Positions 17,022 through 64,000 of a stretch of DNA of 64,000 bases are shown here, piece after piece. This DNA comes from Candidatus Limnocylindrales bacterium (GTDB taxonomy: Bacteria > Patescibacteriota > Microgenomatia > Levybacterales > UBA12049): contig DATLDE010000005.1 of assembly GCA_035526025.1 (NCBI GenBank), positions 32,192 through 96,191 of the forward strand. Reading direction: 5' to 3'. A model generated the notes under the pieces. It saw nothing but the letters and a program-made list of their open reading frames with translations, did not search any database and was not told the DNA's origin. Numbering within the stretch: position 1 is the stretch's first letter; every line of letters starts with the position of its first letter. The position numbers and the translations under genes are program-made.

Positions 17022-17038
17022 ATTATAATAAGTACTAT

Positions 17039-48463: not shown

Positions 48464-49129
48464 TTACAACGCTCCGCGTCCTGAGATCATAGCCCAAGGA
48501 GTTTTGAGGATAATCCATAAGTCATATATAACCGATCGGCGCTTTGCATAATTTGCATCCATCTGTATTCTTTTATCAAAATTAATTTCACTGCGTCCCG
48601 TGACCTGCCAAAAGCCAGTAATTCCTGGTTTAACACTCAACACAACCTTCACGGCTCCACGGGTATGTGGGTATTTTTTTTGCTGTTCTTCGAGCTCATC
48701 AGGATAATAAGCACGTGGACCAACAATACTCATCTCACCATTTAGTACATTAAAAAATTGCGGCAATTCATCCAATGAAAATTTCCTGATAACTCTTCCC
48801 ACCTTAGTTACGCGTGGATCATCTTTTAACTTATAACTTCCTTTCTTATACTGGCTATATAGATCTGCATATTTTGGATCCTGTCTTAGAATAGTATGGG
48901 CATTTTTTACCATGGATCGAAATTTATACATCTTGAATTTTTTTCCATTTTTCCCAACCCTTTCAGGAGTGTCAGCAAGTATAGTTCCCTCCGACTCAGT
49001 TTTTATTGCAAGTGCAACTAGAAAAATAACTGGAGAAAAAATTAGAAGTAGTAAAATTGAAAACAATATATCAACAGATCTCTTGGCAAAATCATAAAAT
49101 GGACTTAATTGTATGTCAATTTTTGGCAT
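48464..49129 (-). CDS. small monotopic phosphoglycosyl transferase (Bac_transf; PglC/WecP/WbaP-C-terminal-like), polyprenyl-phosphate sugar-1-phosphate transferase
   Basis: 221 aa. Re-entrant N-terminal helix plus KMYKFRSM...DELPQFFNVLNGEMSIVGPRA, which are the catalytic motifs of bacterial sugar transferases. Confidence 0.85.
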   Translation of the reverse strand: MPKIDIQLSPFYDFAKRSVDILFSILLLLIFSPVIFLVALAIKTESEGTILADTPERVGKNGKKFKMYKFRSMVKNAHTILRQDPKYADLYSQYKKGSYKLKDDPRVTKVGRVIRKFSLDELPQFFNVLNGEMSIVGPRAYYPDELEEQQKKYPHTRGAVKVVLSVKPGITGFWQVTGRSEINFDKRIQMDANYAKRRSVIYDLWIILKTPWAMISGRGAL

Positions 49130-49130
49130 T

Positions 49131-50216: not shown

Positions 50217-50237
50217 AATTCAATATCCATTATAATA

Positions 50238-51341
50238 TCAAATCAATTTATTCACAACTGACAAGAAATTTTTTTTAAAACTTTCAAAATTAAATCTTTC
50301 TGAGTTAATTATGCATTCATTAGGTCTGAACTTTATTTTTTCAAATCTCACGATCGATTCCATCAAAGACTCCTTATTCTGCTCATCAAAAAACAATCCC
50401 GTACTGCCGTCAATTACTATTTCGCGGGCTCCTCCTTTTTTAAAAGCAATTACTGGCTTGCCATGCATTCCTGCCTCTACCATAACAAGCCCAAAATCTT
50501 CTACTCCAGGAAATATCAACGCTTTACAATTTTTGTAATAATCAATAAGGTCAGCATCATTTATTGCTCCGATAAATTCTACACTAGAACCCGCTATTTT
50601 TTCAAGATCATTTTTCCAGCTCCCTTCTCCTACAATTTTTAAATTAAATTTAAGTTCATTAGCAGCTTCAATGACGAGATCAATTCGCTTATACTTTGTG
50701 AATTTTGAAAGCCTTGAAACCACAAGAAAATAATTTTCCTGATTCCTGATTCTTACCTGCCTGCCTGATTGGAGGGATTCTTGATTCTTTTTTAGAATTG
50801 CCGGTGGATAAACTAACTGCGATTCTCTTCCATAATATTTCTTAATTCTCCTCTGCACCTCTTTGGATATTCCGATATATGCATCAGGCCTTGAAGAGGC
50901 TATGATATCCCATTTTTGAAGCCTTGAAATAATCGGTTTTGACAAAATTTTTAGAAAATCAGTCTGAAAGTAATCATCATACCCACTCCATAAATATCTT
51001 GTAGGCGTGAGACAATAGCAAATGTGGATTGTCCCTGGTTTGGTAATTATTCCTTTTGCTGATTCTGAAGTAACTGAAATGACTAGATCATATTTATCAA
51101 AAACAAGGCTTTCAAACACCAATGGCATCAAAGGCGAAACAAATTCATGGTTTGAGGATGCGAATGGTATTTTCTGGAGAAAGGAAGTTCTAACATCAAA
51201 TACTTTAGCCCATTTTGCTGTATTTTTTTCATAGACCGAAGTATAAAGAGGTGCATCTGGAAATAACTTATGAAAAGCAAGAAGCACTCGCTCAGCACCA
51301 CCCCATTTATTAACTCTATCGTAAACTAATGCTACTTTCAT
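50238..51341 (-). CDS. family 4 glycosyltransferase (GT-B)
   Basis: MKVALVYDRVNKWGGAERV... is a GT4 N-terminal domain, and the C-terminal domain has GVEDFGLVMVEAGMHGKPVIA (the EX7E region). The ORF stays open to 51398, but the GT domain starts at 51341. Confidence 0.75.
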   Translation of the reverse strand: MKVALVYDRVNKWGGAERVLLAFHKLFPDAPLYTSVYEKNTAKWAKVFDVRTSFLQKIPFASSNHEFVSPLMPLVFESLVFDKYDLVISVTSESAKGIITKPGTIHICYCLTPTRYLWSGYDDYFQTDFLKILSKPIISRLQKWDIIASSRPDAYIGISKEVQRRIKKYYGRESQLVYPPAILKKNQESLQSGRQVRIRNQENYFLVVSRLSKFTKYKRIDLVIEAANELKFNLKIVGEGSWKNDLEKIAGSSVEFIGAINDADLIDYYKNCKALIFPGVEDFGLVMVEAGMHGKPVIAFKKGGAREIVIDGSTGLFFDEQNKESLMESIVRFEKIKFRPNECIINSERFNFESFKKNFLSVVNKLI

Positions 51342-52428
51342 ATACAGCCAGTGTCTCTTTTGCCATTTTTCTCCAGGAAAATTCTTTTGAGCGCTCAAGT
51401 CCTTTCTTTATATTTTTATCAAGTATATTTTGCTCAAGACTAAAAACATCGTTTATTTTGTTCTTTATATCCTCAATAGAATATGGATCAAAATATATTG
51501 CAGCATCTAGACAAACTTCTCGCAGCGAAGGAATGTCAGACGCAATAACCTGACATGCTGATGCCATAGCCTCAAGCACCGGTAACCCAAAACCTTCCAT
51601 GAGAGACGGAGATATAAGTGCAATTGCGTTTTGATAATAACCAGCGAGTTCTTTGTCAGTGACATTATTCCGGACTACAACTCCTGAGTAATTTTCTTTT
51701 AAGATTTTCTCATTTAATTTTTTATAAAAAAAATCATCCTTTCCAACCAGCACCAATTGTATGTTTTCATGGTCTTCCTTTCTGAATAAAGAAAAGGCTT
51801 TTATTAATCTGTCAAGATTTTTGTGTGGATATGCATTCCCAACATATAAAAAATATTTTGTTTTATCAACAATTTGTACTTTATCTTTTTTTTGTATTTT
51901 TTCATCAAATCCTTCATAAGTGACAATAATTTTTTCTTGCTTAACTCCCAGGGTTTCTATCAAGTCGTCTTTCACGGCATTCAGCGGTACTATGATTTTT
52001 TGGGCTTTATTAACTGCATTCTTAACCACATAATCATATCCAAGTTTCTTGAGTTGATATAAATACAAAGGAAGCTTTGAGGCTTTACCTGTTGGGAAAT
52101 GATTTATGATCAAATCGTGAATCGTGATGACAAATGGATTTTTATATCCAACAGGAATAGAGAAATATGGAAAATGAACCAAATCCAAATTCTCTTTATT
52201 CAAAATTTGAGGAAGTTTTAACTGCTCATCAAGCGTATGCCAACGAATGTCCACCCGGACAACTTTGAACTTTGAACTTTGAACTTTGAACTTGTCAGCA
52301 TCTGCAGACCTCATAAACAAAACATAATCATTTGTTTTGTCAATTTCGGCTAAATTGTAAACCAAATTCCTGATATACCTCCCAACTCCTGTCTCGCTCC
52401 AAAGCCGCGCGTCAATACCAATTTTCAT
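51316..52428 (-). CDS. family 4 glycosyltransferase (GT-B) containing an in-frame heptanucleotide repeat tract
   Basis: MKIGIDARLWSETGVGRYIRNL... is a GT4 N-terminus, and the C-terminal has PSLMEGFGLPVLEAMA. Four perfect AACTTTG units encode KFKVQSSKFKV near the N-terminus. Confidence 0.8.
   Translation of the reverse strand: MKIGIDARLWSETGVGRYIRNLVYNLAEIDKTNDYVLFMRSADADKFKVQSSKFKVVRVDIRWHTLDEQLKLPQILNKENLDLVHFPYFSIPVGYKNPFVITIHDLIINHFPTGKASKLPLYLYQLKKLGYDYVVKNAVNKAQKIIVPLNAVKDDLIETLGVKQEKIIVTYEGFDEKIQKKDKVQIVDKTKYFLYVGNAYPHKNLDRLIKAFSLFRKEDHENIQLVLVGKDDFFYKKLNEKILKENYSGVVVRNNVTDKELAGYYQNAIALISPSLMEGFGLPVLEAMASACQVIASDIPSLREVCLDAAIYFDPYSIEDIKNKINDVFSLEQNILDKNIKKGLERSKEFSWRKMAKETLAVYESSISLR
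52261..52294. repeat. heptanucleotide microsatellite (AACTTTG)x4 plus one imperfect unit, inside GT4 coding sequence
   Basis: aactttg at 52261-67, 52268-74, 52275-81 and 52282-88, then aacttg. Confidence 0.85.
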
Positions 52429-52449
52429 AAAATAAGTATAACATAGTGG

Positions 52450-53364
52450 CTAAGTAGTGTTTCTTTTGTGAAGAAAACTTATTCCACATTCAACTATCCA
52501 ATTTATAATTTTAGGATATTTTCCTGAATAGTTTTTTTTATAAAAAATCCTCATCGCTTCAAATCGATGTCCTTGCATGATCCTTCTTCGCTCCTTGTCT
52601 GCTGTTGATATGTGATGCGATTGTTTTTTAATACCACTTGATACTCCGCCATAATGAAGAATGCTTACGTCTGGGATATAATAAATTTTAAACCCGAGTT
52701 TTTTAATATCATAACAAAATTGCAAATCCTCGCCATAGAAAAAGTATTCTTCATCCCACCATCCAATTTTTTCACCAACATCCCGACGGACCAACAAAAA
52801 CGCACCAGAAATTGCATCAACCTCGTGAATTGTATTAATGTTTTTAAATCCTTGTATATACCCACTGAACAATTTAGACTTTGAAAACACTTTTTCAAGT
52901 TTTGAAAAATGCGAGAGCGCATTCCATGGAGTAGGAAATCCACGATGCGATGAGTCATCGATTCCGCCTGTAGGTAACACCACCTTACAAGTTGCGGCCC
53001 CAGCATCTTTATGTTCATCCATAAACTCTATCATTCGTGAAAGTGTATTTGGGTATACAATCGTATCCGGATTGAGAAACAATATATACCGCCCATGTGC
53101 ATTTTTAAGAGCATTGTTGTTACCTTTTGCAAAACCGATGTTTCCTCCATTATCTTCAACTAAGAACGTTTTAATTTTTGTCTTATTAGCATAATCTTTA
53201 AATGATTTCAGAGAATCATCAGGTGATGCGTTATCAGCTACAATTACTTCAAAATTTCCTGACTTTACATCTTCTGGATAATTTTTTTCAATAGATGCAA
53301 TAGCGTCAAGCGTCAACTGCTTTGTATTATAATTTAAGATAATTATTGAAAGATCCACGACCAT
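52450..53364 (-). CDS. family 2 glycosyltransferase
   Basis: LSIIILNYNTKQLTLDAIASI...VIVADNASPDDS...FLNPDT. Confidence 0.8.
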   Translation of the reverse strand: MVVDLSIIILNYNTKQLTLDAIASIEKNYPEDVKSGNFEVIVADNASPDDSLKSFKDYANKTKIKTFLVEDNGGNIGFAKGNNNALKNAHGRYILFLNPDTIVYPNTLSRMIEFMDEHKDAGAATCKVVLPTGGIDDSSHRGFPTPWNALSHFSKLEKVFSKSKLFSGYIQGFKNINTIHEVDAISGAFLLVRRDVGEKIGWWDEEYFFYGEDLQFCYDIKKLGFKIYYIPDVSILHYGGVSSGIKKQSHHISTADKERRRIMQGHRFEAMRIFYKKNYSGKYPKIINWIVECGISFLHKRNTT

Positions 53365-53369
53365 AATTA

Positions 53370-54611
53370 TTAATTCTTAATTCTTAATTCGCTATAAACC
53401 CGTTCCAAGTCTTTTGCTATTCTTTTCCATGTGTAATTTTCTTCAATTAATTTCCTCCCATTTTTTGCAATATTCTCATAAAGATTATTATCTTCTAAGA
53501 CTTCAACAGTTTTTTTTGCTAATTCTTTAGCATCTTCAGCAACCATAATATTTTCACCGTCTTTTGCGCCTACTGCGTTAGCGCTAAGTGAAGTAGCTAC
53601 AACAGGTGTTCCGCAACACATACTTTCAAGAATCTTATAGCTAGTTCCGCCACCCACCCTGATAGGAGCCAACAATACATCTGCCTCCTGAAACAACTCT
53701 TCCGTTGGTCTGGTTGAAGACTCTTCATCAAATATGACATCTGGTTCGTTTGTTAAGCTCCTTATATTATCCGGAATATTTCTCCCTACAACCCAGAGCT
53801 TAATCTCGTCATCCTGAAGCGTAGCTGAAGGATCTAGAATCTTCGCTTTACTCAGAATGACAGTTTTAATTTTAGGAAATATTTCATCAATTATAAATTT
53901 CGCTGCATCCCTATTTTGAATCCACCTGAAGTCACCAATGAACAACACTCTTTTGATTCTTGGTTCTTGGTTCTTGGTTCTTTGTAGAAAAGTAAACTTT
54001 TCTAAATCGACCCCATTGGAGACAATAGTTGGATCAACTCCTGTATTTTTCATTACTTTTTTGTCATCCTCTGAAACAGCAATTAATTTTGTTGCTCTCG
54101 CCCAACATGATTCCTCCTCTTTTCTTATTTTGAGAATGTCTATATTAAATAATGGTTTTAAAAAAAATGGAGACTGGTCTGCATACCTTTGATAAACCTG
54201 GTACTCGATGTTGTGCTCTGCCAAAACAACAGGAATTGAAGAATTAGGAAGATTTTGCATAACATAATAAGTCTCAACGTGAATCAAATCATATTTTTTA
54301 TTTTTTAATTCTATTGAGATTTCTTGATTCATTTTCTGACTTTTGTGCCCTGTTACAAGAAATGAGTTTGAGGAAAAAACTGACTTAAATACATTTTTAA
54401 TTGTCCATTGCTTTCCCCTATTAACTGTAATTACTTTTTTACATATTTTTTTAACTCCTAGAATGTCATCCTCTGACTGATTTTCACGCTTTTCACAAAT
54501 GAGTGTTATCTCATGCTTTCCTGCCAATTCTTTTATAAGATTAAACAGCCGTACATGACCTCCAGAATGAAGCGGATAAGGAAGAAAGGACGAGACTAAT
54601 AAAATCTTCAT
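53370..54611 (-). CDS. family 4 glycosyltransferase (GT-B)
   Basis: MKILLVSSFLPYPLHSGGHVRLFNLIKELAGKHEITL is a GT4 N-terminus, and the C-terminal has ...LLAPIRVGGGTSYKILESMCCGTPVVAT. Contains a TTCTTGG x3 repeat. Confidence 0.8.
   Translation of the reverse strand: MKILLVSSFLPYPLHSGGHVRLFNLIKELAGKHEITLICEKRENQSEDDILGVKKICKKVITVNRGKQWTIKNVFKSVFSSNSFLVTGHKSQKMNQEISIELKNKKYDLIHVETYYVMQNLPNSSIPVVLAEHNIEYQVYQRYADQSPFFLKPLFNIDILKIRKEEESCWARATKLIAVSEDDKKVMKNTGVDPTIVSNGVDLEKFTFLQRTKNQEPRIKRVLFIGDFRWIQNRDAAKFIIDEIFPKIKTVILSKAKILDPSATLQDDEIKLWVVGRNIPDNIRSLTNEPDVIFDEESSTRPTEELFQEADVLLAPIRVGGGTSYKILESMCCGTPVVATSLSANAVGAKDGENIMVAEDAKELAKKTVEVLEDNNLYENIAKNGRKLIEENYTWKRIAKDLERVYSELRIKN
53957..53984. repeat. 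heptanucleotide tandem repeat (TTCTTGG)x3 plus an imperfect unit, inside GT4 coding sequence
   Basis: ttcttgg at 53957-63, 53964-70 and 53971-77, then ttctttg. Encodes TKNQEPRI on the minus strand. Confidence 0.8.
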
Positions 54612-54645
54612 AAACTAATTATAGCAGAGGGAATATCAAATAATC

Positions 54646-56115
54646 CTATAAATTAAGTGCGGTTTTGTTATCATTTATACAATTTTTAAGATCAATAATC
54701 ACATAATTTGCAGTTTTTTTGACTACTTTGCATTTTTTCATCCACATATTTGTAGTTTCATCATAATTCACCGAGACGAGGTGGGTCGCTCCTTCTGAAA
54801 TAAACTGAGGTATTTTATCTCCACCGTATGTAAAACCATAGCGATTTGTCTGGTAGAGAAATGCAGAATCAAAATCAAGTGGTGCTATAACTTTTGCGTC
54901 TTTTGGCAATAATTTATCTACTGCTTGACCAGCCTCAACCATCGCAGGATTATTAATATTAAAATATCCCCTAACTTCAAACCAGCCAAAAGCTAACATA
55001 AATAGCACCAATGAAGCTGCAACGCCAGTATTTATAACTCTTTGATAAAACTTTGCTTTAGTAAAGATAAGATAATCTATACCTTTTGCTATGAAAATAC
55101 TACCAATTGTAACTAAGGGCATTTGGTAATAATCATGCGTTACATTACCCTTGGCTATTATCGTGAAGAAAACGAAAATAGATATCAGCCATAAGTAATA
55201 AAAAAATCCTTCTTTCTCACTATTCCCTTTTATTATTCCAAGCCAGAATAAAACAAATCCCCCGGTCGCAAATATCAGACGATTCATACGGTCATATATT
55301 AAATATCTGAAGAAAGCGCCTTTAAAACGTATATTTCCCTGATTAAAAAGCCATGTTGTCCCAAACATTCCCTCTGGATACTGAGCAATATGATTTCGCC
55401 ATAACAGAAATGGAATTAAGGCAATAGCAGCTGCGACATAAATAGAATATTGTTTGTAAAAAATAAATTTCCATTTTCTTAGGATCAAATAACTTATTGG
55501 CAAGATTAGAACCAAACCGTAAGGTTTTGTAAGTATGGTAATCGCAAAAACTACTCCAGCTAGAATTGCAATTAGAATTTTTTCCGTCTTCACCCAATGT
55601 GTTACAAGTAGCAAAGTCAGAACGCTGGCAAAAATATGTAATGGGTCAGGCATAATCACTCGACCATAATATATGTTGTAGGGAAGGAATCCGAAAACAA
55701 AAGCAGATAGTAGTCCTATACGTTTTGACGAATACTCTTTTGCTAAAAAATACAGTACTACAGTTGTTAGGGATGATACTAGGATACTAACAAGCCTTCC
55801 CCACTGTTCAATAGTGAAATTACCAAATGCAGTGTATGCAAAATAGACAAGCGAATTGTAGATTGGGAATTCAGCAAAAAAGTATCTTTTAGGATTTGGT
55901 AGCTGTCTTTCGTTTAGTGAGTTTAGGGCATCAAATTTTGGATAAAAAGGAGTATAACCTTCTTTTATAAAGTTTCGAGTTACTGCTGCTGTATCTGCTT
56001 GACGCCAACTGTGCCAGTCTGCAACTGGATTGTTAAATTTGTAAAGTCGCACAACAAAACTTCCGATGAATATTGCCAATAGCGTAAGTACTATTAAAAA
56101 TTTGTTATATTTCAT
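54646..56115 (-). CDS. GT-C fold glycosyltransferase, GT39/GT83 (PMT/ArnT-like) family
   Basis: 489 aa with about 11 TM helices. The first loop, FNNPVADWHSWRQADTAAVTRNF, resembles the conserved loop 1 of ArnT/PMT-type polyprenyl-phosphate-sugar-dependent transferases. Confidence 0.6.
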   Translation of the reverse strand: MKYNKFLIVLTLLAIFIGSFVVRLYKFNNPVADWHSWRQADTAAVTRNFIKEGYTPFYPKFDALNSLNERQLPNPKRYFFAEFPIYNSLVYFAYTAFGNFTIEQWGRLVSILVSSLTTVVLYFLAKEYSSKRIGLLSAFVFGFLPYNIYYGRVIMPDPLHIFASVLTLLLVTHWVKTEKILIAILAGVVFAITILTKPYGLVLILPISYLILRKWKFIFYKQYSIYVAAAIALIPFLLWRNHIAQYPEGMFGTTWLFNQGNIRFKGAFFRYLIYDRMNRLIFATGGFVLFWLGIIKGNSEKEGFFYYLWLISIFVFFTIIAKGNVTHDYYQMPLVTIGSIFIAKGIDYLIFTKAKFYQRVINTGVAASLVLFMLAFGWFEVRGYFNINNPAMVEAGQAVDKLLPKDAKVIAPLDFDSAFLYQTNRYGFTYGGDKIPQFISEGATHLVSVNYDETTNMWMKKCKVVKKTANYVIIDLKNCINDNKTALNL

Positions 56116-56129
56116 CTAAATAGTATAGT

Positions 56130-59100
56130 TCATTTGATAAGCTTTAAATTTCCGTCTTTATCAAATTCAAATACTCTACCACTTGGATTATTTCCTATTT
56201 CTTTTTTTGCCTGTTCAATAGATGAAGAAGATCTAGTCACCAAATTATTCTCTTTATAAGTGAACCAGGTTGCATCCTGAACTCCTACCGGAAAAATCCA
56301 AGCATTTTTATAGCGTTGCGGAACATTGACGAAGTAAAATATTGGTTTCTTAATTACTCCTAGCTTCATATCTTCGTATCCATCATTCATGTATTGGAGG
56401 AAGTTGTTGGTAATAAGTCCGGCTATTCTCCAATCTCTATTCTCTTTCTGCAACTGGTTATACTGGAAAATAAGAAAAAAAGCAGGTATTGCCCAAATCA
56501 CTATGACCGCAAATATCTTATTAAATGATTTAAGGTATGCATAAATTTTTTGAAAAACAAAAACCACAAATAATATCGCACCAAATGACGCTAAGTATGT
56601 ATATCTTGGTGCAATATTTCCAAGTCCTAAAAATGGTAAAAGAGGAATTATAAAAAATAGTAAACTAATTACAATAATATCTTTATCATGCTTTTTAATA
56701 TGTCTTATATTTTTCTTAAAAATATAAACTGCTAGATAAGAAAAAACAGCTATTACTACAAAAGCAAATACCATATTTGTTCTTAGACTTGATCTCATAA
56801 ACTCATTTACTTGAAGAAATGGAGAGCCAACAAAAATATAGCCAAGCGAACTAATTGCATTACCAAAAAAATTAAAAGGCAATTTTAATAGATTATATTT
56901 ATAATCACCTGCTGACCAAAAACTATTCGAAATTAGCTTCATGAAAAAGTATAAAATCAATGAGGCAACATAAAAAATATAGTGCTTATTTACTAATTGT
57001 TTATTTACTAATTTAGAGGAGACAATTCCATAACTTACAACTAGAATCGGAGTAATCACGCCATATTCATGAAATAGTGGGGCTACAAAACTAAATAGTA
57101 CTGAAATAATTAAGTATAGATTTTTCTTACCTTCTTTCCATTTCAGATATAACCAAAACGATAGCATCGTAAAAAAAGTTGCAAATAAATGCCCGACAGC
57201 TGAAATCCAAAATATAGTTTCAGCATGTGAGGCAAGCAAGAGAAATATAAACGCAGTAACAAATGATAGTAATTTATCTTTAAGAATTTTTTGCGTTATC
57301 AAGAATATCAAAATGGTGATCGCAACATGCAAGCTCAGGGAAACAAGATGATAAACAACCGGACTTATTCCACCAAATTGAGAATTATACAATATATAAA
57401 AGTATGTTTTCATTCCTGGTCTGTAGAAGAATTCACTTGAATTGAAAAAGAAATTAGACAAAATATTAAATTTAGACGAACAATTCGCTACGCCTCCTTG
57501 AGTGAGTTGCTTACAATCTGAAACCCATTTTATCCATGTGAAATCATCCGCTACAAAGAAATGGTTTAACATCTCCCAGAAAAAAATAAGCGCTGTAACG
57601 CCAAAATAAATGAAAATTGCAGGGACTGAAAATAACATATCTTTAATTTCATGTATCAGATCAATAGATTTCTTTCTATACTGAACCAGTATTCCAATAG
57701 TTAGCCCTACTAGAATCCAAAGTGTATAGGAAATTTTTGAAGCCTCAAATACATCAATTAGCGAGGCGTTGAGCCATAAACCGAAAATGCCAGCGGTTAC
57801 ACCAATCACAAAACTGCGAGTGAGCTTATCCTCAATCAAAGGCATAATTTTAGCAAAATAAATTGCATAAATTAGAAATATTAAACTAAATAATCCAAAA
57901 CCCATCAACCCTGTTTCGCCAAGAAATCTAAAGTAATTTCCATCAGTTGCCAATGTGATGGACGAGTATCCGCTTCCAAAGAATATATTTCTCTTGAATG
58001 CTTTAATTGCATTAGGCCATTCAGCCTGAAGTCGTGTAGTAATTGATGCATCTAGGGCACTTGCTTTTTGGATAATAAAATCGCCTTGTAAATTCTGGAC
58101 ATCTATTGATTTGGCAGTCCCCTTTTGCGTATTAATGATAACATTCTTCGTATTACCAATTTTCTTAGCATTAGTTGATAGAGATCCCGCATACAAATCA
58201 GGACCTGAAGGCTGGACATTGTTAATCACAAATTTTCCATTAACACTATCTCCATATCCAATTACTTTTCCTGTCCGTGCATCAACAATCCTATTAACAG
58301 ATGAGAATGTGGCCGAGTAACGTGCATAAAGCCCAGTGAATGTCCGCAGCATAACGAAACTTATAATGACAACTGGGATTATCCATTTTTTTTGCTTTTG
58401 TAAAATTAACATGAATATTACTGCCAGAAGATACATCAAAAAGGATGTTCGCGATTGTGTCATTAAAAGAGTTATGAATCCCAGTACACTGATGATCAAT
58501 AATCCAAAACGCCCAAACCAATTTTTATAACCAAAAATCAAGCTACCAATCAAAGGAATTAGCATCACAAGATAAGCTCCAAAATCATAATGTCCTGCAA
58601 AAGTTGATTGTAGCCTGCCCGCTGCATCAAGAACTAGTGGAATTCCTTTAGCGAATTCCTCATTCATAGTAGAAAATGCAGGAAATCTTTGGGGGATAAA
58701 GCGCTGACCAAACCCATACAAGACGACAGTCAGAAACACGCCCACGATTATAGGTATAAAAAATTTAATACTTTTCTTGTCTTTAATCGCTGCATATGCA
58801 ATAAAAAACAACGACATATACTCAATGTGCCTTGCATAAAAAAGTAATGCGTTCCTGGAGTATATTCTCGGGTCACCAGTAATGGTAGGGTCATTCAGAT
58901 GGGGGAAAATATATATCAAACCCAACAAAGTAGATATAAAACCAGTAAGCCAAAATGCAAAAATGGCAATCGTTAAAGGAGTTTTGAAGGATTCTTTTTT
59001 TCGAATAACCTGGATTAGATAAATTATTACAAAAAGCAATACAATAAAATCTTCAGCTCTTACATAGACATTTACATGGGTTAACCCAATTAATGGTATT

Positions 59101-59183
59101 TTAGGATACAAAGGAATAAATGCCACTAAAAATAACGTGAAAACCAGAAAAATATTATTTTTTAATAAAGATAATAATTTCAT
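56130..59183 (-). CDS. giant polytopic membrane protein: N-terminal Wzy_C (O-antigen ligase/polymerase/O-OTase-like) domain fused to a second C-terminal multi-TM domain
   Basis: N-terminal half: more than 10 TM helices with MTQSRTSFLMYLLAVIF (Wzy_C core), a predicted periplasmic loop of about 130 aa, then RNIFFGSGYSSITLATDGNYFRFLGETGLMGF. C-terminal half: about 12 further TM helices (FVADDFTWI..., HEYGVITP...) of unknown family, with a 90-aa soluble C-terminal tail. Start taken at ATG 59183 (MKLLSLLK). The track ORF extends to 59246, overlapping the upstream GT2. Confidence 0.65.
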   Translation of the reverse strand: MKLLSLLKNNIFLVFTLFLVAFIPLYPKIPLIGLTHVNVYVRAEDFIVLLFVIIYLIQVIRKKESFKTPLTIAIFAFWLTGFISTLLGLIYIFPHLNDPTITGDPRIYSRNALLFYARHIEYMSLFFIAYAAIKDKKSIKFFIPIIVGVFLTVVLYGFGQRFIPQRFPAFSTMNEEFAKGIPLVLDAAGRLQSTFAGHYDFGAYLVMLIPLIGSLIFGYKNWFGRFGLLIISVLGFITLLMTQSRTSFLMYLLAVIFMLILQKQKKWIIPVVIISFVMLRTFTGLYARYSATFSSVNRIVDARTGKVIGYGDSVNGKFVINNVQPSGPDLYAGSLSTNAKKIGNTKNVIINTQKGTAKSIDVQNLQGDFIIQKASALDASITTRLQAEWPNAIKAFKRNIFFGSGYSSITLATDGNYFRFLGETGLMGFGLFSLIFLIYAIYFAKIMPLIEDKLTRSFVIGVTAGIFGLWLNASLIDVFEASKISYTLWILVGLTIGILVQYRKKSIDLIHEIKDMLFSVPAIFIYFGVTALIFFWEMLNHFFVADDFTWIKWVSDCKQLTQGGVANCSSKFNILSNFFFNSSEFFYRPGMKTYFYILYNSQFGGISPVVYHLVSLSLHVAITILIFLITQKILKDKLLSFVTAFIFLLLASHAETIFWISAVGHLFATFFTMLSFWLYLKWKEGKKNLYLIISVLFSFVAPLFHEYGVITPILVVSYGIVSSKLVNKQLVNKHYIFYVASLILYFFMKLISNSFWSAGDYKYNLLKLPFNFFGNAISSLGYIFVGSPFLQVNEFMRSSLRTNMVFAFVVIAVFSYLAVYIFKKNIRHIKKHDKDIIVISLLFFIIPLLPFLGLGNIAPRYTYLASFGAILFVVFVFQKIYAYLKSFNKIFAVIVIWAIPAFFLIFQYNQLQKENRDWRIAGLITNNFLQYMNDGYEDMKLGVIKKPIFYFVNVPQRYKNAWIFPVGVQDATWFTYKENNLVTRSSSSIEQAKKEIGNNPSGRVFEFDKDGNLKLIK

Positions 59184-59184
59184 A

Positions 59185-60063
59185 TTAAAATTGAATTGCC
59201 TGTCTAAATGTTGTCGTAAGATACTTATTTCTTGTAATATAACCAATTGTGATTGCTACATATGCCTTAACGTATAACATTGCCTTCACAAGGATATATT
59301 CCATATTACTTCTGTGCTTTTTATAAAAATAAAGAAGCCCTTTGTAGATATTTGCTACTGCGAAACTTCGGCTTGAACTTCCCTGATCCTGGTGGATTAC
59401 TGAAACATCAGGATAGAAAAATGTTCTAAATCCAGCTTTTTTTGCACGATAACAAAGTTCCATATCTTCTATATACATAAATATTTTTTCATCAAAACCC
59501 GATAATTTATCAAAGACATCTTTTCTCATCATGAACATCGCACCTTTTACCCAATCTACTTCGGTAACTTTATTAAAACTTTTATCAATCAATCCAAACT
59601 TTTGCATACCTAATAGAAGTAAAAAAGTATTGAACAATGTATAAAATTTTCCCGCTGATGATTGCTTCTCCCCATTAACATTAGTTAGCTGTCCCCCGAG
59701 AATTGATACATCTATATTTTTATCCATGTACTCTACCATTCTAACTATTCCTTTATCCATAACAGTTGTATCATTATTGAGAAACAACAGATATTTTCCT
59801 TTTGCTTCTTTTGCTCCGATATTACAACCTTTTGCAAATCCTTCATTTTTCTTATTATTTATAACTTTTATATTTTTAATACTATCTTTTGCTATTTTAA
59901 TGTTTATAAAATCTAATGAGTCATCTTCAGATCCATTTTCAACAATTATCAGCTCAAATTTGTTTTTTTCAAAATCGTCATTATATAACTTATATAGTGA
60001 GTCAATACAATTAATCGTCAGATGAGATTTTTTATAATTAATACTTATTATTGAAAGCATCAT
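59185..60063 (-). CDS. family 2 glycosyltransferase
   Basis: MMLSIISINYKKSHLTINCIDSL...LIIVENGSEDDS...FLNNDT. Confidence 0.75.
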   Translation of the reverse strand: MMLSIISINYKKSHLTINCIDSLYKLYNDDFEKNKFELIIVENGSEDDSLDFINIKIAKDSIKNIKVINNKKNEGFAKGCNIGAKEAKGKYLLFLNNDTTVMDKGIVRMVEYMDKNIDVSILGGQLTNVNGEKQSSAGKFYTLFNTFLLLLGMQKFGLIDKSFNKVTEVDWVKGAMFMMRKDVFDKLSGFDEKIFMYIEDMELCYRAKKAGFRTFFYPDVSVIHQDQGSSSRSFAVANIYKGLLYFYKKHRSNMEYILVKAMLYVKAYVAITIGYITRNKYLTTTFRQAIQF

Positions 60064-60067
60064 AAAA

Positions 60068-60661
60068 CTATCGGAACCATGCAGCGCGACCAAGCTTATA
60101 ATTCAATTCTTTTAACACTCTTTCTTTTATTATTTTAGCTGGAACTCCACCAACCATTTCAAATTCTTTAACGTCTTTTGTCACCACTGACCCTGCTGCA
60201 ATAACCGCACCTTTTCCGATATTCACACCTGGAAGTATGATGGATCGTGGTCCGATAAAGACATAGTCTCCAATACGCACAGGTGCATTTATCCCTCCAA
60301 AATGCGGATCTTCAATATCATGTTGGGAATTATATATCATCACATCCGACGCAATATCGACATGATTTCCAATACTTAGCTTGTCTCTTCCATCCAGAAC
60401 TATTCCTTCTCCGATAATTGTTCCATTCCCAATCGTTATATTCCTTGGGTTATAAAAACGTGCGCCCATGTGAATTGCGGACCCTGACCCAATTTGAACA
60501 CCTGCCAATCTATAAAAAAACCTCCTGATAATATGTGAAGGGAAATGCCCCACTATATGAAGTAAAAGAACTATCAGTTCCCACATGGTAGTATTTGCTC
60601 TATTTACGCTTTTATCCAACACCTCGTGCGTTGAAAGTTCTTTTCCGGTTTTGTCTATCAT
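60068..60661 (-). CDS. left-handed beta-helix (hexapeptide-repeat) sugar O-acetyltransferase with N-terminal TM segment
   Basis: IGEGIVLDGRDKLSIGNHVDIASDVMI...IGPRSIILPGVNIGKGAVIAAGSVVTKDV contains LbH hexapeptide repeats. Confidence 0.75.
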   Translation of the reverse strand: MIDKTGKELSTHEVLDKSVNRANTTMWELIVLLLHIVGHFPSHIIRRFFYRLAGVQIGSGSAIHMGARFYNPRNITIGNGTIIGEGIVLDGRDKLSIGNHVDIASDVMIYNSQHDIEDPHFGGINAPVRIGDYVFIGPRSIILPGVNIGKGAVIAAGSVVTKDVKEFEMVGGVPAKIIKERVLKELNYKLGRAAWFR

Positions 60662-61773
60662 AATTTGCCTCCTATCTCCTCAAGTACATTCAGGGTTTCT
60701 TTTGCTGTTTTTTCCCAACTGAATTTAGCCACTTGTTTTTTCCCTTTTTCGATTAATTCTTTTCTTAGCTTCTCATCATCAATTAGCTTAGTCATTTTAT
60801 CAGTAATGTCATCAACGTTTTCAGGATCTATGTAAAGACAGGCATCTCCTCCAGCTTCTGGAAGACTACTTACATTACTTGCAACAACTGGACACTCATT
60901 TTTCATTGCTTCAAGAACAGGTAGACCAAATCCTTCATAAAGACTTGGCAGAACCATGCAAACTGCGTTCTTGTAGAGAATTGGTAACTCATCATTATCA
61001 ACGTTATGTAAAAATCTTACTCTCTCTTCAATCCCTAGCTCTAAAGGTTTTTTTAATATTTCCTCATATAACCATCCTTTTTTTCCTACAATAACGAGAT
61101 CAAGATTTTTTTCAGACAATTTTGAAAAAGCCTCAATAAGTTTTCCAATATTCTTTCTCGGCTGAATTGTGCCTACAAAAAGTATATATTTACCTTCCAA
61201 TTTATATTTTGTTTTAAGTTGCGTCATACCATATACATGTGGCTTCAGTGACGTAAATTTTCTGATACCAGGATATGTTACGCTTACTCTCTCAGGAGCC
61301 ACTCCATACTCTTTAATTATATCATTTTTACTTGAGTTGCTTATAGTTATGATTTTTTTTGCTTTCTTGACAGAATAAGATGTCCAATTTTTAAGCTGAA
61401 TCAAATCATGCTTATTAAATAATTCCGGAAAATATAGAAATGATAGATCCATTACTGAAATAATTGATGGAACCGGAGAAAAGCGGGGACCATAATGCGA
61501 AGGGGAAAAAAACACTTCTGGTCTTGGACGATGTAAGTACAGATCTAGAGGAAGCCTCCCTTGTGTCCACATCCTTCCAGGCTTTATAACTCTATATTTC
61601 CAGTTATTATTTTCTTTAGGAAAATCAGGAAGTGGCCTGTTTTTTAAGTAAATTACAAATTCTATCTCTTGAACTACTAATTTTGAAAAATGCATCAATA
61701 ACTCATAGGCGTACGCACCAATTCCCACACGATTTGTTATATTTGCTTCATTACCATCAATTCCTATAATCAT
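60658..61773 (-). CDS. family 4 glycosyltransferase (GT-B)
   Basis: MIIGIDGNEANITNRVGIGAYAYELL is a GT4 N-terminus, and the C-terminal has PSLYEGFGLPVLEAM. Confidence 0.8.
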   Translation of the reverse strand: MIIGIDGNEANITNRVGIGAYAYELLMHFSKLVVQEIEFVIYLKNRPLPDFPKENNNWKYRVIKPGRMWTQGRLPLDLYLHRPRPEVFFSPSHYGPRFSPVPSIISVMDLSFLYFPELFNKHDLIQLKNWTSYSVKKAKKIITISNSSKNDIIKEYGVAPERVSVTYPGIRKFTSLKPHVYGMTQLKTKYKLEGKYILFVGTIQPRKNIGKLIEAFSKLSEKNLDLVIVGKKGWLYEEILKKPLELGIEERVRFLHNVDNDELPILYKNAVCMVLPSLYEGFGLPVLEAMKNECPVVASNVSSLPEAGGDACLYIDPENVDDITDKMTKLIDDEKLRKELIEKGKKQVAKFSWEKTAKETLNVLEEIGGKL

Positions 61774-61819
61774 ATTATTAAGAGATTAGAAACTAAGTAC
61801 TTCTCAATATTATATCAAT

Positions 61820-62353
61820 CTAAATTCCGGGATATACGACTTGCAACTTTTTACTATCAATATGCAGAAACTCTTCCGCATCCGCTTTTGTTGAATTAGA
61901 TATGCAAAGAATTTGATCGCACTCAAGCCTCACCCATTTCAATCTTCTTTTCTGAGTATCGACAATCATCTTATCTGTTTCTTCCGGACGCTTATACACA
62001 ATAAGATCATATAGTATTGTAATTTTTCTTGCTTTTTTTGTCGGGGGCTGCGTCCAATCAGAAGATAAAAAAACATCTACCTCTCCAATCAGATCCTCAA
62101 TCGGCATAATATGAAGTTTATTCCAAAGTAAATCAAGAAGTTTTGGAGGAAATCTAAATTTCCTTATTTTGTATTTAGCCCTGTTATTCCTAATTTTTAA
62201 TTCTAGATTATTAATTCTTCTTAGGCTTGAATAAAACAATATGTATTCATTATCGGTATCGATATTAAGCATATTCTCTACGAGATTTTTGACATAATTT
62301 GCAACCCCTGTGTTGCTATAAGCCAACTGAGATATGTCAATACCTATTTTCAT
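61820..62353 (-). CDS. GT4 glycosyltransferase N-terminal domain only (truncated paralog / possible gene remnant)
   Basis: MKIGIDISQLAYSNTGVANYVKNL...LQVVYPGI matches only a Glyco_trans_4-type N-terminal domain. It stops where the donor-binding C-terminal domain would begin, and no C-terminal domain ORF follows. Confidence 0.5.
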   Translation of the reverse strand: MKIGIDISQLAYSNTGVANYVKNLVENMLNIDTDNEYILFYSSLRRINNLELKIRNNRAKYKIRKFRFPPKLLDLLWNKLHIMPIEDLIGEVDVFLSSDWTQPPTKKARKITILYDLIVYKRPEETDKMIVDTQKRRLKWVRLECDQILCISNSTKADAEEFLHIDSKKLQVVYPGI

Positions 62354-62391
62354 ATATATATTCTATCAGAAAAATACCAAGGGGTAGAATT

Positions 62392-62982
62392 TTATTTTTT
62401 TACGCAGTCAAAGAAAATATCTCCACTGAATACGTATTGATACCAAATACTTAGAATTAAAAAACCCAAAACAATCAACACGCCCTTACCCTTTTTATCA
62501 CGCATAAAGCCCCAAATACCATATATTGAAAATACTAGATAAGGAAAGCTAATCAATATTAATCTCGCATCATAACTTATTGAACCTCCAAAGATCTCGA
62601 CCAATGGAAGCATTAACAATAACGCTAACATCATAAGCTTATATTTAAATTTGGATCTAACTAAATACCAAAAACCACAAAATATTCCAAAATACCCAAC
62701 TATTGAAAAGAACATAACCCCAAACCGTATATCCCAAAAATGAAAGTAGTTTGAAAAAATACTATTTACAAAAAATACAGGCTTGTTATGAAACAGCCTT
62801 ACGAGTTCTGGTGAAAAACCAATATCATTATGTACTGCATCTTCAAGCCTAAGACCCATCTGAGGATATGAGAAGTGAAACTTATCTGAAAAATCTCTGC
62901 AAGCATTCCACATTCGAAAAGTATTTAATTCGTAAAGAATGAAAATTGTTAATAAAATTTTTTTAATCATTATAAATTCCAT
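62392..62982 (-). CDS. hypothetical integral membrane protein
   Basis: 196 aa with 4-5 TM helices. No family recognised. Confidence 0.45.
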   Translation of the reverse strand: MEFIMIKKILLTIFILYELNTFRMWNACRDFSDKFHFSYPQMGLRLEDAVHNDIGFSPELVRLFHNKPVFFVNSIFSNYFHFWDIRFGVMFFSIVGYFGIFCGFWYLVRSKFKYKLMMLALLLMLPLVEIFGGSISYDARLILISFPYLVFSIYGIWGFMRDKKGKGVLIVLGFLILSIWYQYVFSGDIFFDCVKK

Positions 62983-64000
62983 ATCTCAGCATAAATATCG
63001 TTATTATTGCCCGGCAAATATGCTCTATCTATTATTTGTTCGTTGTTAACATTCCCATAATTTGGCCTTATATAGAGCACTTTCTTCTTTTCCCATTCCT
63101 TAGGCTTAACCCATGAAGACTCTACAACCAATAACTCTACTGAATCCATATAAAAATTTACATAATGTTCTGTGAAGTTTAAATTTTTGTCAATCACTAA
63201 ATAGTCATACTTTCCTTTATGTTTAATTATTTTTTCAACAATTTGCTTATTACCAGCTCCCCAATCTAAAGCATTGACCTTTGGGTAATGGTTGTAGTAA
63301 AAATGCGCATAGATTAAAAAGTCATACATAGCAATGATGACTAAGAATACTAGAAATATTTTTTTAAACTTTTTTAGATTTATATAAAAAATAACAATTC
63401 CAAGGGATATTAAAATTGTAATAGGCAAAATCAATAAAAGTGACCTCAGACTATGCGGGCTAGGTCGTGCAAGCGCCGCGGGAAGTGGAGCAAGGGAAAT
63501 AAGCCCTATAACTACATATTTATATGCATTTCTTTTCTGCTTAATCAGCCATGATGTTCCCAAAATCAAGAATGGCAACTGCCATCTATAAAGCAACCCA
63601 AACCCTGGTATTTGGTGACGACCATTACCGTCTCCATTACTAAATAAATAGTCAAAAGAGAAAAAAGAAATATAATTTTTAACATAAACCATAGGATACA
63701 CAAATAATTTCTGGGTTGTAGTATCAGCCTTATATTCTGAAAATGCAGATGTTTGAACAAATCTTTCAGATCCTTTGGATGTTAGCGAGAATTGAATTAT
63801 AGGAATAATCAAAATTATAAATATCACTCCGCATCGTATAATTTTTTTTCTGAGCTTTGGTAGCTTTATAAAAAATGCAGTCAATAAAATTAACCAGCTC
63901 AGGGGAGAGATGATTCTAAATGTATGATATGTATATGCGCTTAATGCAAAAAGAATAAATCCACCCACAAAGTACTTTGCTTTATTATTTCCCCAAAACA
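62970..64000 (-). CDS. integral membrane protein, partial (5' end beyond window), possibly GT-C-like
   Basis: The frame stays open through position 64000 with no stop after the GTG at 63968. It is multi-TM, with a soluble C-terminal tail of about 90 aa. Confidence 0.5.
   Translation of the reverse strand, partial: FWGNNKAKYFVGGFILFALSAYTYHTFRIISPLSWLILLTAFFIKLPKLRKKIIRCGVIFIILIIPIIQFSLTSKGSERFVQTSAFSEYKADTTTQKLFVYPMVYVKNYISFFSFDYLFSNGDGNGRHQIPGFGLLYRWQLPFLILGTSWLIKQKRNAYKYVVIGLISLAPLPAALARPSPHSLRSLLLILPITILISLGIVIFYINLKKFKKIFLVFLVIIAMYDFLIYAHFYYNHYPKVNALDWGAGNKQIVEKIIKHKGKYDYLVIDKNLNFTEHYVNFYMDSVELLVVESSWVKPKEWEKKKVLYIRPNYGNVNNEQIIDRAYLPGNNNDIYAEIWNL

Follow-up and report, generated by a model that had tools for sequence, protein, structure and literature searches.

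A long reading frame in the 64,000-nucleotide stretch of DNA analysed here (the window) raises two questions: whether it is one genuine gene or two genes joined in error, and what two membrane-embedded halves would do within a single protein. All features described below lie on the minus strand.

The long reading frame is a genuine and widely conserved gene

The frame at positions 56130–59246, counted in the ORF list from the first TTG at 59246, codes for 1038 amino acids, as given in the initial annotation, and the strings quoted there (MTQSRTSF..., FGSGYSSITLATDGNYFRFLGETG and FVADDFTWIKW) are all found in the translation. However, the ATG at 59183 is almost certainly the true start, since a 100%-identical database protein has 1017 residues, the equivalent methionine is the first residue in all homologues, and this ATG lies one base past the stop codon of the GT2 gene upstream. 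From this start, the coding sequence runs over 56130–59183 (1017 amino acids plus stop). A database search gave 1687 matches, of which the best 120 are about 1000–1130 amino acids long, nearly all span the whole query and show identities down to 39%. Relatives are encoded in at least 550 species-level genomes, mostly Microgenomates of the candidate phyla radiation (CPR).

Some database entries appear split, as might be expected if two neighbouring genes had been merged through a sequencing or assembly error. Yet when we looked up four close relatives that seemed to stand alone, none proved to be cleanly split. In L085, an in-frame TAG stands where the invariant E480 would be, within the N-terminal module. 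L084 has a reading-frame shift beside an A-run, in a poorly conserved Lys/Arg-rich cytoplasmic linker that joins the two modules (amino acids 502–519; 57627–57680, placed by charge count and helix map); by our reading, deleting one A regains the fused frame. P0122 and P0137 both begin at contig ends. Other short matches are truncated fusions, because their starts fall inside Wzy_C, and the fusion is uninterrupted in more than 80 independent assemblies. A fusion by sequencing or assembly error, which had been raised as a concern, is thus ruled out by the full-length homologues, and we consider the chance of such an artefact negligible.

The full-length homologues, together with two distinct folds, bear out the earlier proposal of a two-module membrane protein. 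We conclude that the gene is real and encodes a widely conserved 23-helix (12 + 11 TM) membrane protein of Microgenomates. On the positive-inside rule, both catalytic centres are predicted to lie on the outer side of the cytoplasmic membrane, a topology further supported by the strong conservation of the outside loops and by an invariant cysteine pair in one of them (EL1, described below). An AF2 model of the whole chain (pLDDT 82, pTM 0.82) suggests a defined packing between the two bundles.

The N-terminal module is WaaL/Wzy_C-like with an aspartate at the catalytic position

The N-terminal module (amino acids 1–505; 57669–59183) has a 12-TM WaaL/Wzy_C-like GT-C(B) fold. The Wzy_C core that had been proposed for it was recovered in Pfam (35.5 bits, cut-off 31.7; amino acids 252–433 of the 1038-residue form), but the half is about 505 rather than about 560 residues long. 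At E ≤ 1, the only other Pfam match in the whole protein was a sub-threshold CbiQ, and PglL_A, DUF2723 and YfhO, families suggested earlier, were not matched. None of the NCBIfam RfaL models matched.

By hhalign and MAFFT, R245 in 'TQSR' (58449–58451) is equivalent to R215 in 'TQTR' of E. coli WaaL. It is invariant over the 46 homologues checked and, by analogy with the role of WaaL R215 (PMC10920833), is predicted to touch the lipid-linked donor at its diphosphate. The invariant R384 in 'TTRLQAEWP' (58032–58034), on an outside amphipathic helix, is the probable counterpart of E. coli WaaL R288 in 'GARLAMYE', judged only from motif resemblance; MAFFT instead aligned WaaL R265 with this protein's invariant R288. 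A motif scan and MAFFT also identified D414-G-X9-G425-XX-G428 ('DGNYFRFLGETGLMG'; 57900–57944), which matches the WaaL motif H-N-X9-G-XX-G ('HNEIIEAGSLKGLMG') with identical G-XX-G spacing, except that Asp takes the place of the catalytic His. D414 aligns with the WaaL motif His (H338 in the MG1655 translation), and D414, G425 and G428 are all invariant. SEDS enzymes and inverting polymerases as a rule carry Asp or Glu at the acceptor-activating site, whereas O-antigen ligases carry His (PMC10920833). The change from His to Asp alone cannot tell a polymerase from a ligase with a sugar acceptor.

Compared to the WaaL O-antigen ligase (CAZy GT121; 7TPG/7TPJ), the module keeps the 'TQxR' arginine and the X9-G-XX-G stretch past the catalytic position, and its donor presumably belongs to the same class, an undecaprenyl-diphosphate glycan. 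It differs in the invariant Asp, in the whole second glycosyltransferase attached to it, and in some 88 additional, beta-rich residues inserted in the large outside loop (amino acids 291–378; 58050–58313, from AF2 secondary structure), which are modelled with low confidence (pLDDT about 50–70) and less conserved (mean identity 35%, 12% conserved columns). A lipid A-core acceptor is not expected in a CPR cell. The initial annotation had doubted a classical LPS-ligase role, and such a role is indeed unlikely given the missing RfaL match and reports that CPR bacteria have no Gram-negative envelope (PMC6744442). The protein resembles Wzy inverting polymerases and SEDS enzymes (CAZy clan GT-C1; PMC10920833) in its acidic acceptor-activating residue and in having one or two conserved arginines. 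Unlike Wzy polymerases, it is 34–70% identical across classes, far above typical Wzy conservation, and has no adjacent Wzx flippase or chain-length regulator.

The Wzy_C domain is also common to PglL, PilO, WsaB and WsfB (PMC2943079), and CPR cells are reported to be rich in pili and, having no Gram-negative envelope, would offer no LPS acceptor (PMC6744442). This would accord with a classical O-oligosaccharyltransferase of the PglL/PilO/WsaB type, the N-terminal module attaching the glycan directly to pilins or S-layer proteins at Ser, Thr or Tyr and the C-terminal module being accessory. We consider this improbable. The His replaced here by an invariant Asp aligns between WaaL and PglS, where H324A serves as the inactive control (PMC12800693); PglL_A was not matched; and the conserved catalytic motifs of the C-terminal module would be left without explanation. 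Of the two activities first suggested for the protein, O-oligosaccharyltransferase is therefore weakened by the invariant Asp at the WaaL/PglS His position (PMC10920833, PMC12800693), while the polymerase survives.

The C-terminal module belongs to the PMT/TMTC clan

The C-terminal module (amino acids 520–938; 56370–57626) was initially described as a bundle of about 12 helices of no recognisable family with a 90-residue soluble tail. The bundle is there, but it has 11 helices, a tail of about 80 residues and the GT-C(A) fold of a PMT/TMTC-clan glycosyltransferase. A suggested Pfam PMT_2 check was well chosen: relatives of the module reach this family (best E 1.9e-9) and truncated fusion homologues contain 23–25-bit matches, but the window protein itself stays below the threshold and does not match DUF1736. 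In hhalign, the module matched the neighbouring PMT_2 family with a probability of 81%. Its closest solved folds are the protein O-mannosyltransferases Pmt4, Pmt2 and Pmt1, and its more distant relatives bear C-terminal TPR repeats, as TMTC enzymes do.

The first outside loop, EL1 (amino acids 541–607; 57363–57563), contains the invariant D546-D547 (57543–57548), an invariant cysteine pair (C557/C568) and 'FFYRP' (Y587-R588-P589). In pattern and spacing, its DD and YRP fit TMTC motifs M1 and M2, while P847-L-L-P850 in TM9 and R860-Y-T-Y863 in outside loop EL5 (56595–56645) correspond to M6 (PxxP) and M7 (ERxxY), as these motifs are defined for TMTC enzymes, where M6 and M7 touch the lipid-phosphate donor (PMC7801869). 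Of these residues, R860 and Y861 never vary, Y863 and P850 reach at least 90% conservation, and the wider family has the consensus 'IAERYxYL'. Judged by pattern and loop position, DD, YRP, PxxP and RxxY thus fall in those loops that bind dolichyl-phosphate-mannose in TMTC enzymes. M3 and M4 are approximate only (HxE and HE versus RxD and KE).

Like TMTC1-4, PMT and bacterial PMT_2 enzymes (GT-C(A), PMT clan), the module has 11 TM helices, an inside N-terminus and an outside C-terminal domain, the last predicted from the odd TM count. Unlike in those enzymes, there is no TPR or MIR domain; instead, an alpha/beta domain of about 79 residues (amino acids 939–1017; 56133–56369, from AF2 secondary structure) carries the invariant residues P955, F964, P965, G967, D970 and W973. 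By analogy with other GT-C enzymes with outside domains (PMC11127046), it may bind the acceptor.

The marginal Pfam score of the N-terminal module, the lack of a Pfam match for the C-terminal module in the window protein, and the lower mean identity of the C-terminal half (38% versus 51%) might suggest that one module is catalytic and the other a degenerate scaffold or substrate-binding bundle, kept for stability or complex formation. This is very unlikely, as R245, R384 and D414 in one module and D546, D547, E706, D760 and R860 in the other are invariant at catalytic or donor-binding positions of solved relatives. Moreover, the most conserved parts are outside loops, not TM helices (28% conserved columns in EL1 versus 7–10% in TM segments).

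The fusion gene lies in a conserved glycan operon

Pfam and NCBIfam scans place the fusion gene in a co-directional glycan operon (46384–63968). In descending window coordinates, it is preceded by membrane ORFs, a half GT4 (N-terminal domain only), a GT4, a WcaF-like acetyltransferase and a GT2, and followed by a PMT_2 enzyme, GT4, GT2, GT4, GT4, a ManC-like nucleotidyltransferase, a WbaP-like phosphoglycosyltransferase and DUF4012. Of 82 related loci, up to 79 share this order and strand. The upstream GT2 (59185–60093; Pfam GT2), coupled to the fusion gene by a stop/start junction, adjoins it in 70 of the 82; it lacks TM helices, and among solved structures it most resembles ordinary GT-A enzymes. 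The downstream PMT_2 GT-C glycosyltransferase (54646–56115; Pfam PMT_2, 48.5 bits) adjoins it in 71 and, judging from the profile-profile match, is a distant paralogue of the C-terminal module.

We found no Wzx flippase within 10 kb of the fusion in any of the 82 loci, and no chain-length regulator, clear polyprenyl-phosphate-sugar synthase or small flippase gene in the operon. The locus is thus not a conventional wzx-wzy one with an unrelated C-terminal family, the arrangement that would have spoken against the original proposal; the C-terminal family is a functionally related one. A second, smaller Wzy_C gene (403 amino acids) adjoins the window's only Wzx. Its product also has Asp at the WaaL His position, and therefore neither Wzy_C protein resembles a classical ligase.

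Possible roles of the two fused modules

Our preferred explanation, to which we give somewhat less than an even chance, is a bifunctional outward-facing enzyme that couples two transfers, that of a whole glycan en bloc from undecaprenyl diphosphate and that of single sugars from a polyprenyl-phosphate donor, the modules acting sequentially on one envelope glycan. Direct support comes from the two folds, the conserved catalytic motifs, the outward topology, the conservation of the fusion and the synteny. For the donors, the acceptor, the order of steps and any substrate hand-over, we infer the following scheme. In the cytoplasm, the WbaP-like initiating transferase, the GT4s and GT2s, the acetyltransferase and the ManC-like enzyme would make a lipid-linked unit, which a flippase encoded outside the operon would flip. 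In module 1 (amino acids 1–505), the arginines would hold the diphosphate of this undecaprenyl-diphosphate-linked glycan and Asp, not His, would activate the acceptor, so that the oligosaccharide is moved en bloc to a sugar hydroxyl in polymerase-type chemistry; repeat units would be either polymerised or joined to a glycan-bearing acceptor. Module 2 (amino acids 520–1017), a TPR-less GT-C enzyme of the PMT/TMTC clan with the donor-binding motif set, would transfer sugars singly from a polyprenyl-monophosphate carrier, with mannose the most likely sugar. Both would work in sequence on the same conserved envelope glycan, preferably with the N-terminal module building the chain and the C-terminal module and the adjacent PMT_2 enzyme then adding side-chain or extending sugars. 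Two outward-facing steps of cell-surface glycan assembly thus appear united in one protein, one of them assigned to a previously unannotated PMT/TMTC-type sugar transferase.

There is precedent for GT-C enzymes decorating glycans beyond the membrane from lipid-phosphate sugars (PMC11127046). In three-component systems (GtrA/GtrB/GtrC; GT136), a GT-C enzyme that has an additional outside domain transfers single sugars from a polyprenyl-phosphate carrier to a glycan built on undecaprenyl diphosphate. There, however, the GT-C is a separate protein with synthase and flippase genes adjoining, whereas here it is fused to a polymerase- or ligase-like enzyme. For bimodular ligases, the precedent is WadA of Brucella and Mesorhizobium (GT25 + GT121; PMC10920833, PMC9938171), a WaaL-family module fused to a second glycosyltransferase. 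Both modules serve the same glycoconjugate, which implies that the steps are coupled. WadA's partner module, a GT25, is soluble, lies in the cytoplasm and takes its sugar from a nucleotide donor, while that in the fusion is an integral-membrane GT-C presumably using an outside lipid-phosphate sugar, and the sequence relationship is limited to the Wzy_C module. Against the preferred explanation, the operon has no Wzx, chain-length regulator or clear polyprenyl-phosphate-sugar synthase, and the small Wzy_C beside Wzx could be the true polymerase, leaving the fusion as a ligase.

This last point leads to a WadA-like alternative, possible but rather doubtful, in which the C-terminal module primes an acceptor, for example a surface protein at Ser/Thr, a lipid or a wall component, with one mannose, and the N-terminal module then ligates the finished lipid-linked glycan to that primer; the separate, conventional pair of small Wzy_C and Wzx within the window would then supply the polymerase. 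Such priming would agree with the protein O-mannosyltransferase folds nearest to the C-terminal module, with the TPR repeats of its distant relatives, which recall TMTC protein O-mannosyltransferases (PMC7801869), and with WadA, a ligase fused to the maker of its acceptor sugar (PMC10920833, PMC9938171). Wzy_C enzymes are used in Gram-positive S-layer glycosylation (PMC2943079), and an Asp base fits a sugar-hydroxyl acceptor. However, a mannose-accepting protein is only putative, and the Asp shared by both Wzy_C proteins argues against either being a classical ligase. Pfam PMT_2 also extends to enzymes with non-protein acceptors, such as ArnT. Furthermore, one stand-alone paralogue of the C-terminal module sits at an ABC-transporter locus, and no Wzy_C lies within 7 kb of it; the module is therefore not strictly dependent on a ligase partner. 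Stand-alone paralogues occur in L088 and L089, where they are preceded by an orthologue of the upstream GT2.

The fusion is encoded by a single, widely distributed gene

The minus-strand ORF 56130..59246 encodes 1038 aa when counted from its first TTG, and all sequence strings cited in the initial annotation are present in it. This TTG sits 62 bases within the upstream GT2 gene. Since an ATG at 59183 lies one base past the stop codon of that gene, the database protein of 100% identity has 1017 aa and the homologues all begin at the Met equivalent to this ATG, we adopted the 1017-aa numbering for the fusion (56130..59183).

A large protein collection contained 1687 matches to the fusion. The best 120 of these are ~1000–1130 aa long and nearly all span the whole query, with identities down to 39%; those with a name, from Patescibacteria or Levybacteria, are entered as "O-antigen ligase family protein" or as "hypothetical protein". 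In a scan using one genome per species, at least 550 genomes were found to encode a relative, and the 80 species-genome matches retained, from Levy-, Gottesman-, Roizman- and Woesebacteria, are nearly all full-length. The possibility that two genes had been joined by a sequencing error is thus refuted, as full-length homologues are widespread and the apparent splits did not stand. Natural split genes as proof that the modules cooperate were likewise rejected: four close "stand-alone" matches were checked and none was a clean split, two of them starting at contig ends. Further short matches begin inside Wzy_C and are truncated fusions. In L085, a locus on a related metagenome contig, an in-frame TAG (2990–2992) replaces the invariant E480 within the N-terminal module. 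In a second such locus, L084, a frame shift lies beside an A-run in the inter-module linker (~8000–8020), where, by our reading, deleting one A would bring back the fused frame. These disruptions could be sequencing errors, or a real pseudogene or split.

The predicted structure joins two GT-C folds

An AlphaFold2 model of the fusion, built on 46 homologues, had a mean pLDDT of 82 and a pTM of 0.82. Sequence-based searches of solved structures gave no meaningful match for the full-length profile, the N-module (aa 1–505), the C-module family profile or a second, smaller Wzy_C protein of the window, and fold comparison alone gave usable matches. Foldseek returned STT3, WaaL, PglB and Pmt4, each with a probability of 1.00. 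FtsW (14.0) and RodA (12.8) were also listed by fold comparison, as expected since the N-module resembles the WaaL bundle. On these matches, the protein consists of a GT-C(B) module linked to a GT-C(A) one, as the folds are named in PMC10920833 and PMC11127046.

To derive the topology, the helices of the model were considered jointly with mean Lys/Arg counts across the alignment. The N-module is predicted to have 12 TM helices with both ends cytoplasmic, and has the WaaL-type arrangement of a large outside loop ahead of the last three helices. A beta-rich insertion of ~88 aa within this loop (aa 291–378) is variable and poorly modelled. A Lys/Arg-rich linker (aa 502–519) follows. The C-module (aa 520–1017) is predicted to have 11 TM helices, with the loop at aa 541–607 and the last ~80 residues outside; it shows the GT-C(A) pattern of a structured outside loop right after TM1 in a bundle of ~11–13 helices. 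PMT enzymes have eleven TM helices. The same number has been described for TMTC enzymes (PMC7801869). Columns at least 90% conserved make up 27–37% of the outside loops and the N-module core, compared to 7–10% of the C-module TM segments, a pattern that supports the outside-loop topology. Two Cys residues in the first outside loop of the C-module (EL1), C557 and C568, are also invariant and probably form a disulfide.

The N-module retains the WaaL arginines and has Asp at the position of the catalytic His

The N-terminal Wzy_C domain proposed in the initial annotation was borne out by Pfam, PF04932 passing its curated threshold marginally (35.5 versus 31.7 bits), and precomputed PF04932 matches are on record for most homologues. 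At E ≤ 1, Pfam reported Wzy_C, a sub-threshold CbiQ match (17–19 bits) that we regard as noise, and no other family, PglL_A being absent. An NCBIfam scan of the fusion gave nothing useful and no RfaL match. When the family was compared with E. coli WaaL by hhalign, the result was insignificant (1.7% probability), yet the TQxR motif was aligned; a motif scan and MAFFT were therefore used for the comparison with E. coli K-12 WaaL. R245 in the 'TQSR' of the fusion is the counterpart of WaaL R215 in 'TQTR' (hhalign, MAFFT), and the WaaL motif HNEIIEAGSLKGLMG matches DGNYFRFLGETGLMG of the fusion with identical spacing (motif scan, MAFFT). The catalytic His of the WaaL motif H-[NSQ]-X9-G-XX-[GTY] corresponds to D414. 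R245, R288, R384 and D414 are invariant in the homologue alignment. The diphosphate-binding arginines of the Wzy_C superfamily are present (R245; R288/R384). R288 and R384 both lie in the large loop, and either may be the counterpart of WaaL R288.

In WaaL, the arginines hold the carrier diphosphate and the His activates the acceptor, whereas SEDS enzymes and inverting Wzy-type polymerases have Asp or Glu at the His position (PMC10920833). The PglS O-oligosaccharyltransferase depends on the equivalent His, H324A serving as an inactive control (PMC12800693). With its arginines kept, the N-module looks competent for undecaprenyl-diphosphate-linked donors, and its invariant D414 suggests acceptor activation of the polymerase/SEDS type rather than the ligase/oligosaccharyltransferase type. 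Inverting Wzy polymerases are recognized by Asp or Glu at the ligase-His position together with one or two conserved arginines (PMC10920833), a combination that the N-module has in D414, R245 and R288/R384. An assignment of the N-module to WaaL or PglL does not seem justified to us, since a check for the defining His found Asp instead. The role as an O-oligosaccharyltransferase raised in the initial annotation is weakened accordingly: enzymes of the PglL/WsaB type share the Wzy_C domain (PMC2943079), but with that His missing and no PglL_A domain found we consider a direct role of this type very unlikely.

The C-module carries the signature of PMT/TMTC-clan enzymes

Pfam assigns the C-terminal half of the fusion to no family, and the window protein has no PMT_2 match. 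A full HMMER search with aa 529–1017 against 1.8 billion representative proteins yielded 7336 relatives, the more distant being stand-alone membrane proteins with C-terminal TPR repeats. Some distant relatives match Pfam PMT_2, among them the database protein P0252 (26.5 bits, cut-off 26.1), and the best PMT_2 E-value among 30 aligned C-module family members was 1.9e-9. Two truncated fusion homologues scored 23–25 bits for PMT_2 within the C-module itself. In addition, a profile of 46 C-modules matched that of the PMT_2 family encoded downstream of the fusion with 81% probability (E 1.2e-5, 274 columns).

TMTC O-mannosyltransferases share a motif set that forms the dolichyl-phosphate-mannose and metal site (PMC7801869). 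Most of this set recurs in the C-module in the same order and in corresponding loops, as judged from pattern and loop position rather than from aligned TMTC sequences. The acidic pair (DD/DE) in the first outside loop that marks the PMT clan (PMC7801869) is found as D546-D547 in EL1, five residues past TM1; none of the 46 fusion homologues deviates from it, and among 30 wider relatives it is nearly invariant. By the same pattern-and-position matching, the further donor-binding motifs YRP, PxxP and ERxxY are present: Y587-R588-P589 in EL1, 41 residues past the acidic pair versus 40 in TMTC1; P847 and P850 in the ninth helix (TM9); and R860 and Y863 of (E)RxxY in outside loop EL5, where the wider family consensus is 'IAERYxYL'. 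The Asp-plus-aromatic motif of the set falls in outside loop EL4 (D760-Y761). Motifs M3 and M4 are approximate only (H653-x-E655 and H705-E706).

We conclude that the C-module is a putative TPR-less PMT/TMTC-clan enzyme, though only a divergent member of the PMT clan. Together with the ManC-like enzyme encoded in the operon, the motif set suggests that its donor is most likely a polyprenyl-monophosphate sugar, plausibly mannose. True stand-alone C-module paralogues retain the upstream GT2 and downstream GT4 partners. One (L088) belongs to an ABC-transporter locus where no Wzy_C occurs within 7 kb, and another (L089/L090) is an extra copy next to a gene that is probably the fusion. Thus, the C-module can exist without Wzy_C.

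The fusion lies in a conserved glycan operon

The fusion is part of a co-directional, closely spaced gene run on the minus strand (46384–63968). Going down the window coordinates, and named by Pfam family, the genes ahead of the fusion are two membrane ORFs, a half GT4 that has the N-terminal domain only, a complete GT4, a WcaF-like acetyltransferase and a GT2, and a PMT_2 GT-C, a GT4, a GT2 and two further GT4 genes follow it. The distal part encodes a ManC-like mannose-1-phosphate guanylyltransferase, a WbaP-type phosphoglycosyltransferase catalytic domain and a DUF4012 protein.

When the operon proteins were compared by tblastn with 82 related loci, gene order and strand proved to be retained. 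The GT2 adjoins the fusion upstream in 70 of these loci and the PMT_2 gene adjoins it downstream in 71; the acetyltransferase is found in 76, Bac_transf in 56 and DUF4012 in 43, many loci ending early at contig ends. The half GT4 (61820–62353, minus strand; 177 aa, the N-terminal half of a GT4, Glyco_transf_4) lies just upstream of a full-length GT4, and because this arrangement is kept in 64 of the 82 loci we take it as a genuine half-enzyme or subunit, not a fragment. The two overlapping multi-TM ORFs at 62392–63968 (minus strand; 196 and 332 aa, the second running to the window edge) match no family, nor do they resemble the membrane genes that take their place in the closest relative, L001; the operon is therefore variable at this end. 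Nor do the surroundings of the fusion amount to a conventional wzx-wzy locus, since in none of the 82 loci does a homologue of the window's Wzx lie within 10 kb of it.

The upstream GT2, considered as a candidate lipid-phosphate-sugar synthase, lacks TM helices, and its relatives of solved structure are generic GT-A enzymes; no such synthase was identified with confidence in the operon. Wzz-type chain-length regulators typically have two TM helices. DUF4012 was rejected as such a regulator, having one TM helix and an unsuitable topology, and a fold search with its AlphaFold2 model found generic helical bundles only.

A second, conventional glycan module lies at 10236–17785 of the window and comprises genes for a Wzy_C, a GT2, a Wzx, a TM-tailed GT2, a GT4 and three small GT2 proteins. 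Its Wzy_C protein (403 aa, 76.5 bits) also has Asp at the ligase-His position, and the only Wzx of the window (Polysacc_synt_3) adjoins this gene, not the fusion. A 332-aa GT2 with C-terminal TM helices has what we take to be the architecture of GtrB/DPMS-type lipid-phosphate-sugar synthases. This module may supply a flippase, a polymerase and a lipid-phosphate-sugar donor to the main operon.

Possible modes of action of the fusion

Taken together, motifs and model show two apparently intact catalytic modules, predicted to face outward and permanently fused; the conserved operon around them builds an oligosaccharide that is lipid-linked, acetylated and probably contains mannose. The N-module would move this oligosaccharide en bloc onto a sugar hydroxyl, and the C-module, with a lipid-phosphate donor, would add single sugars to the same product. 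GT-C enzymes are known to decorate glycans outside the membrane (PMC11127046). Given this pattern, the Asp signature and the presence of several GT-C genes in the locus, we tentatively favour chain assembly by the fusion, followed by decoration or extension.

The main rival, which we regard as somewhat unlikely, is a prime-and-ligate scheme like that of WadA, the bimodular ligase of Brucella and Mesorhizobium: the TMTC-like module would prime a protein, or an acceptor of another kind, with a mannose, the N-module would ligate the glycan onto this primer, and the small Wzy_C beside Wzx would be the polymerase. WadA provides a precedent (PMC10920833, PMC9938171). WadA joins a GT25 domain to GT121, whereas the fusion has no GT25-type domain, as Pfam reports Wzy_C only, and its partner module is a membrane GT-C; WadA is an analogue, not a relative. 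It is unlikely, in our estimate, that one 23-TM polypeptide O-mannosylates a surface protein or other envelope acceptor from polyprenyl-phosphate-mannose through its TMTC-like module, and joins the operon glycan en bloc to that mannose through its Asp-type WaaL-like module. If true, this two-donor prime-and-ligate chemistry on the cell surface would define a conserved pathway to an envelope glycoconjugate of Microgenomates that has so far gone unrecognised, in which a GT-C(A) and a GT-C(B) active site hand over directly between them.

We found no description in the searchable literature of a covalent fusion of a Wzy_C (WaaL/Wzy-type) with a GT-C(A) (PMT/TMTC-type) module, and nothing relevant on Wzy_C in CPR. 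Each module is of a known kind; their joining is what appears new. Public records miss the second enzyme, so that in hundreds of genomes half of the protein, a complete glycosyltransferase, goes without annotation. Few envelope loci that we met across Microgenomates are as syntenic as the fusion with its operon, which suggests that a surface glycan or glycoconjugate is conserved in this large, mostly uncultivated group, reported to be without a Gram-negative envelope. The fusion would be a natural system for the coordination of en-bloc and single-sugar transfer outside the membrane, and is a compact candidate part for glycoengineering.

Other features of the window

The NCBI protein identical to the fusion (P0001) is labelled 'Candidatus Limnocylindrales bacterium' (Chloroflexota). 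Since its close relatives are all Microgenomates and the G+C content of the window is 31–42%, this label is probably wrong. Many related assemblies are labelled 'uncultured Gammaproteobacteria', which looks wrong or like a placeholder.

Next to the small Wzy_C gene, 9534–10235 (plus strand) encodes a protein of 233 aa that contains Glucodextranase domain B along with Ig-like repeats and may be surface or cell-wall-associated. A DUF2079 membrane protein (1180–2625, plus strand; 160 bits), whose gene is flanked by a DNA polymerase III alpha fragment on one side and the ATP synthase operon on the other, belongs to a family linked with cell-surface glycopolymer formation and may be a further outside-acting glycosyltransferase. 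Finally, a 357-aa protein (37932–39005, plus strand) has three Trans_reg_C (winged-helix, OmpR-type) DNA-binding stretches and no receiver domain; its gene adjoins the cell-division/cell-wall cluster (MraZ, MraW, PBP, Mur ligases).
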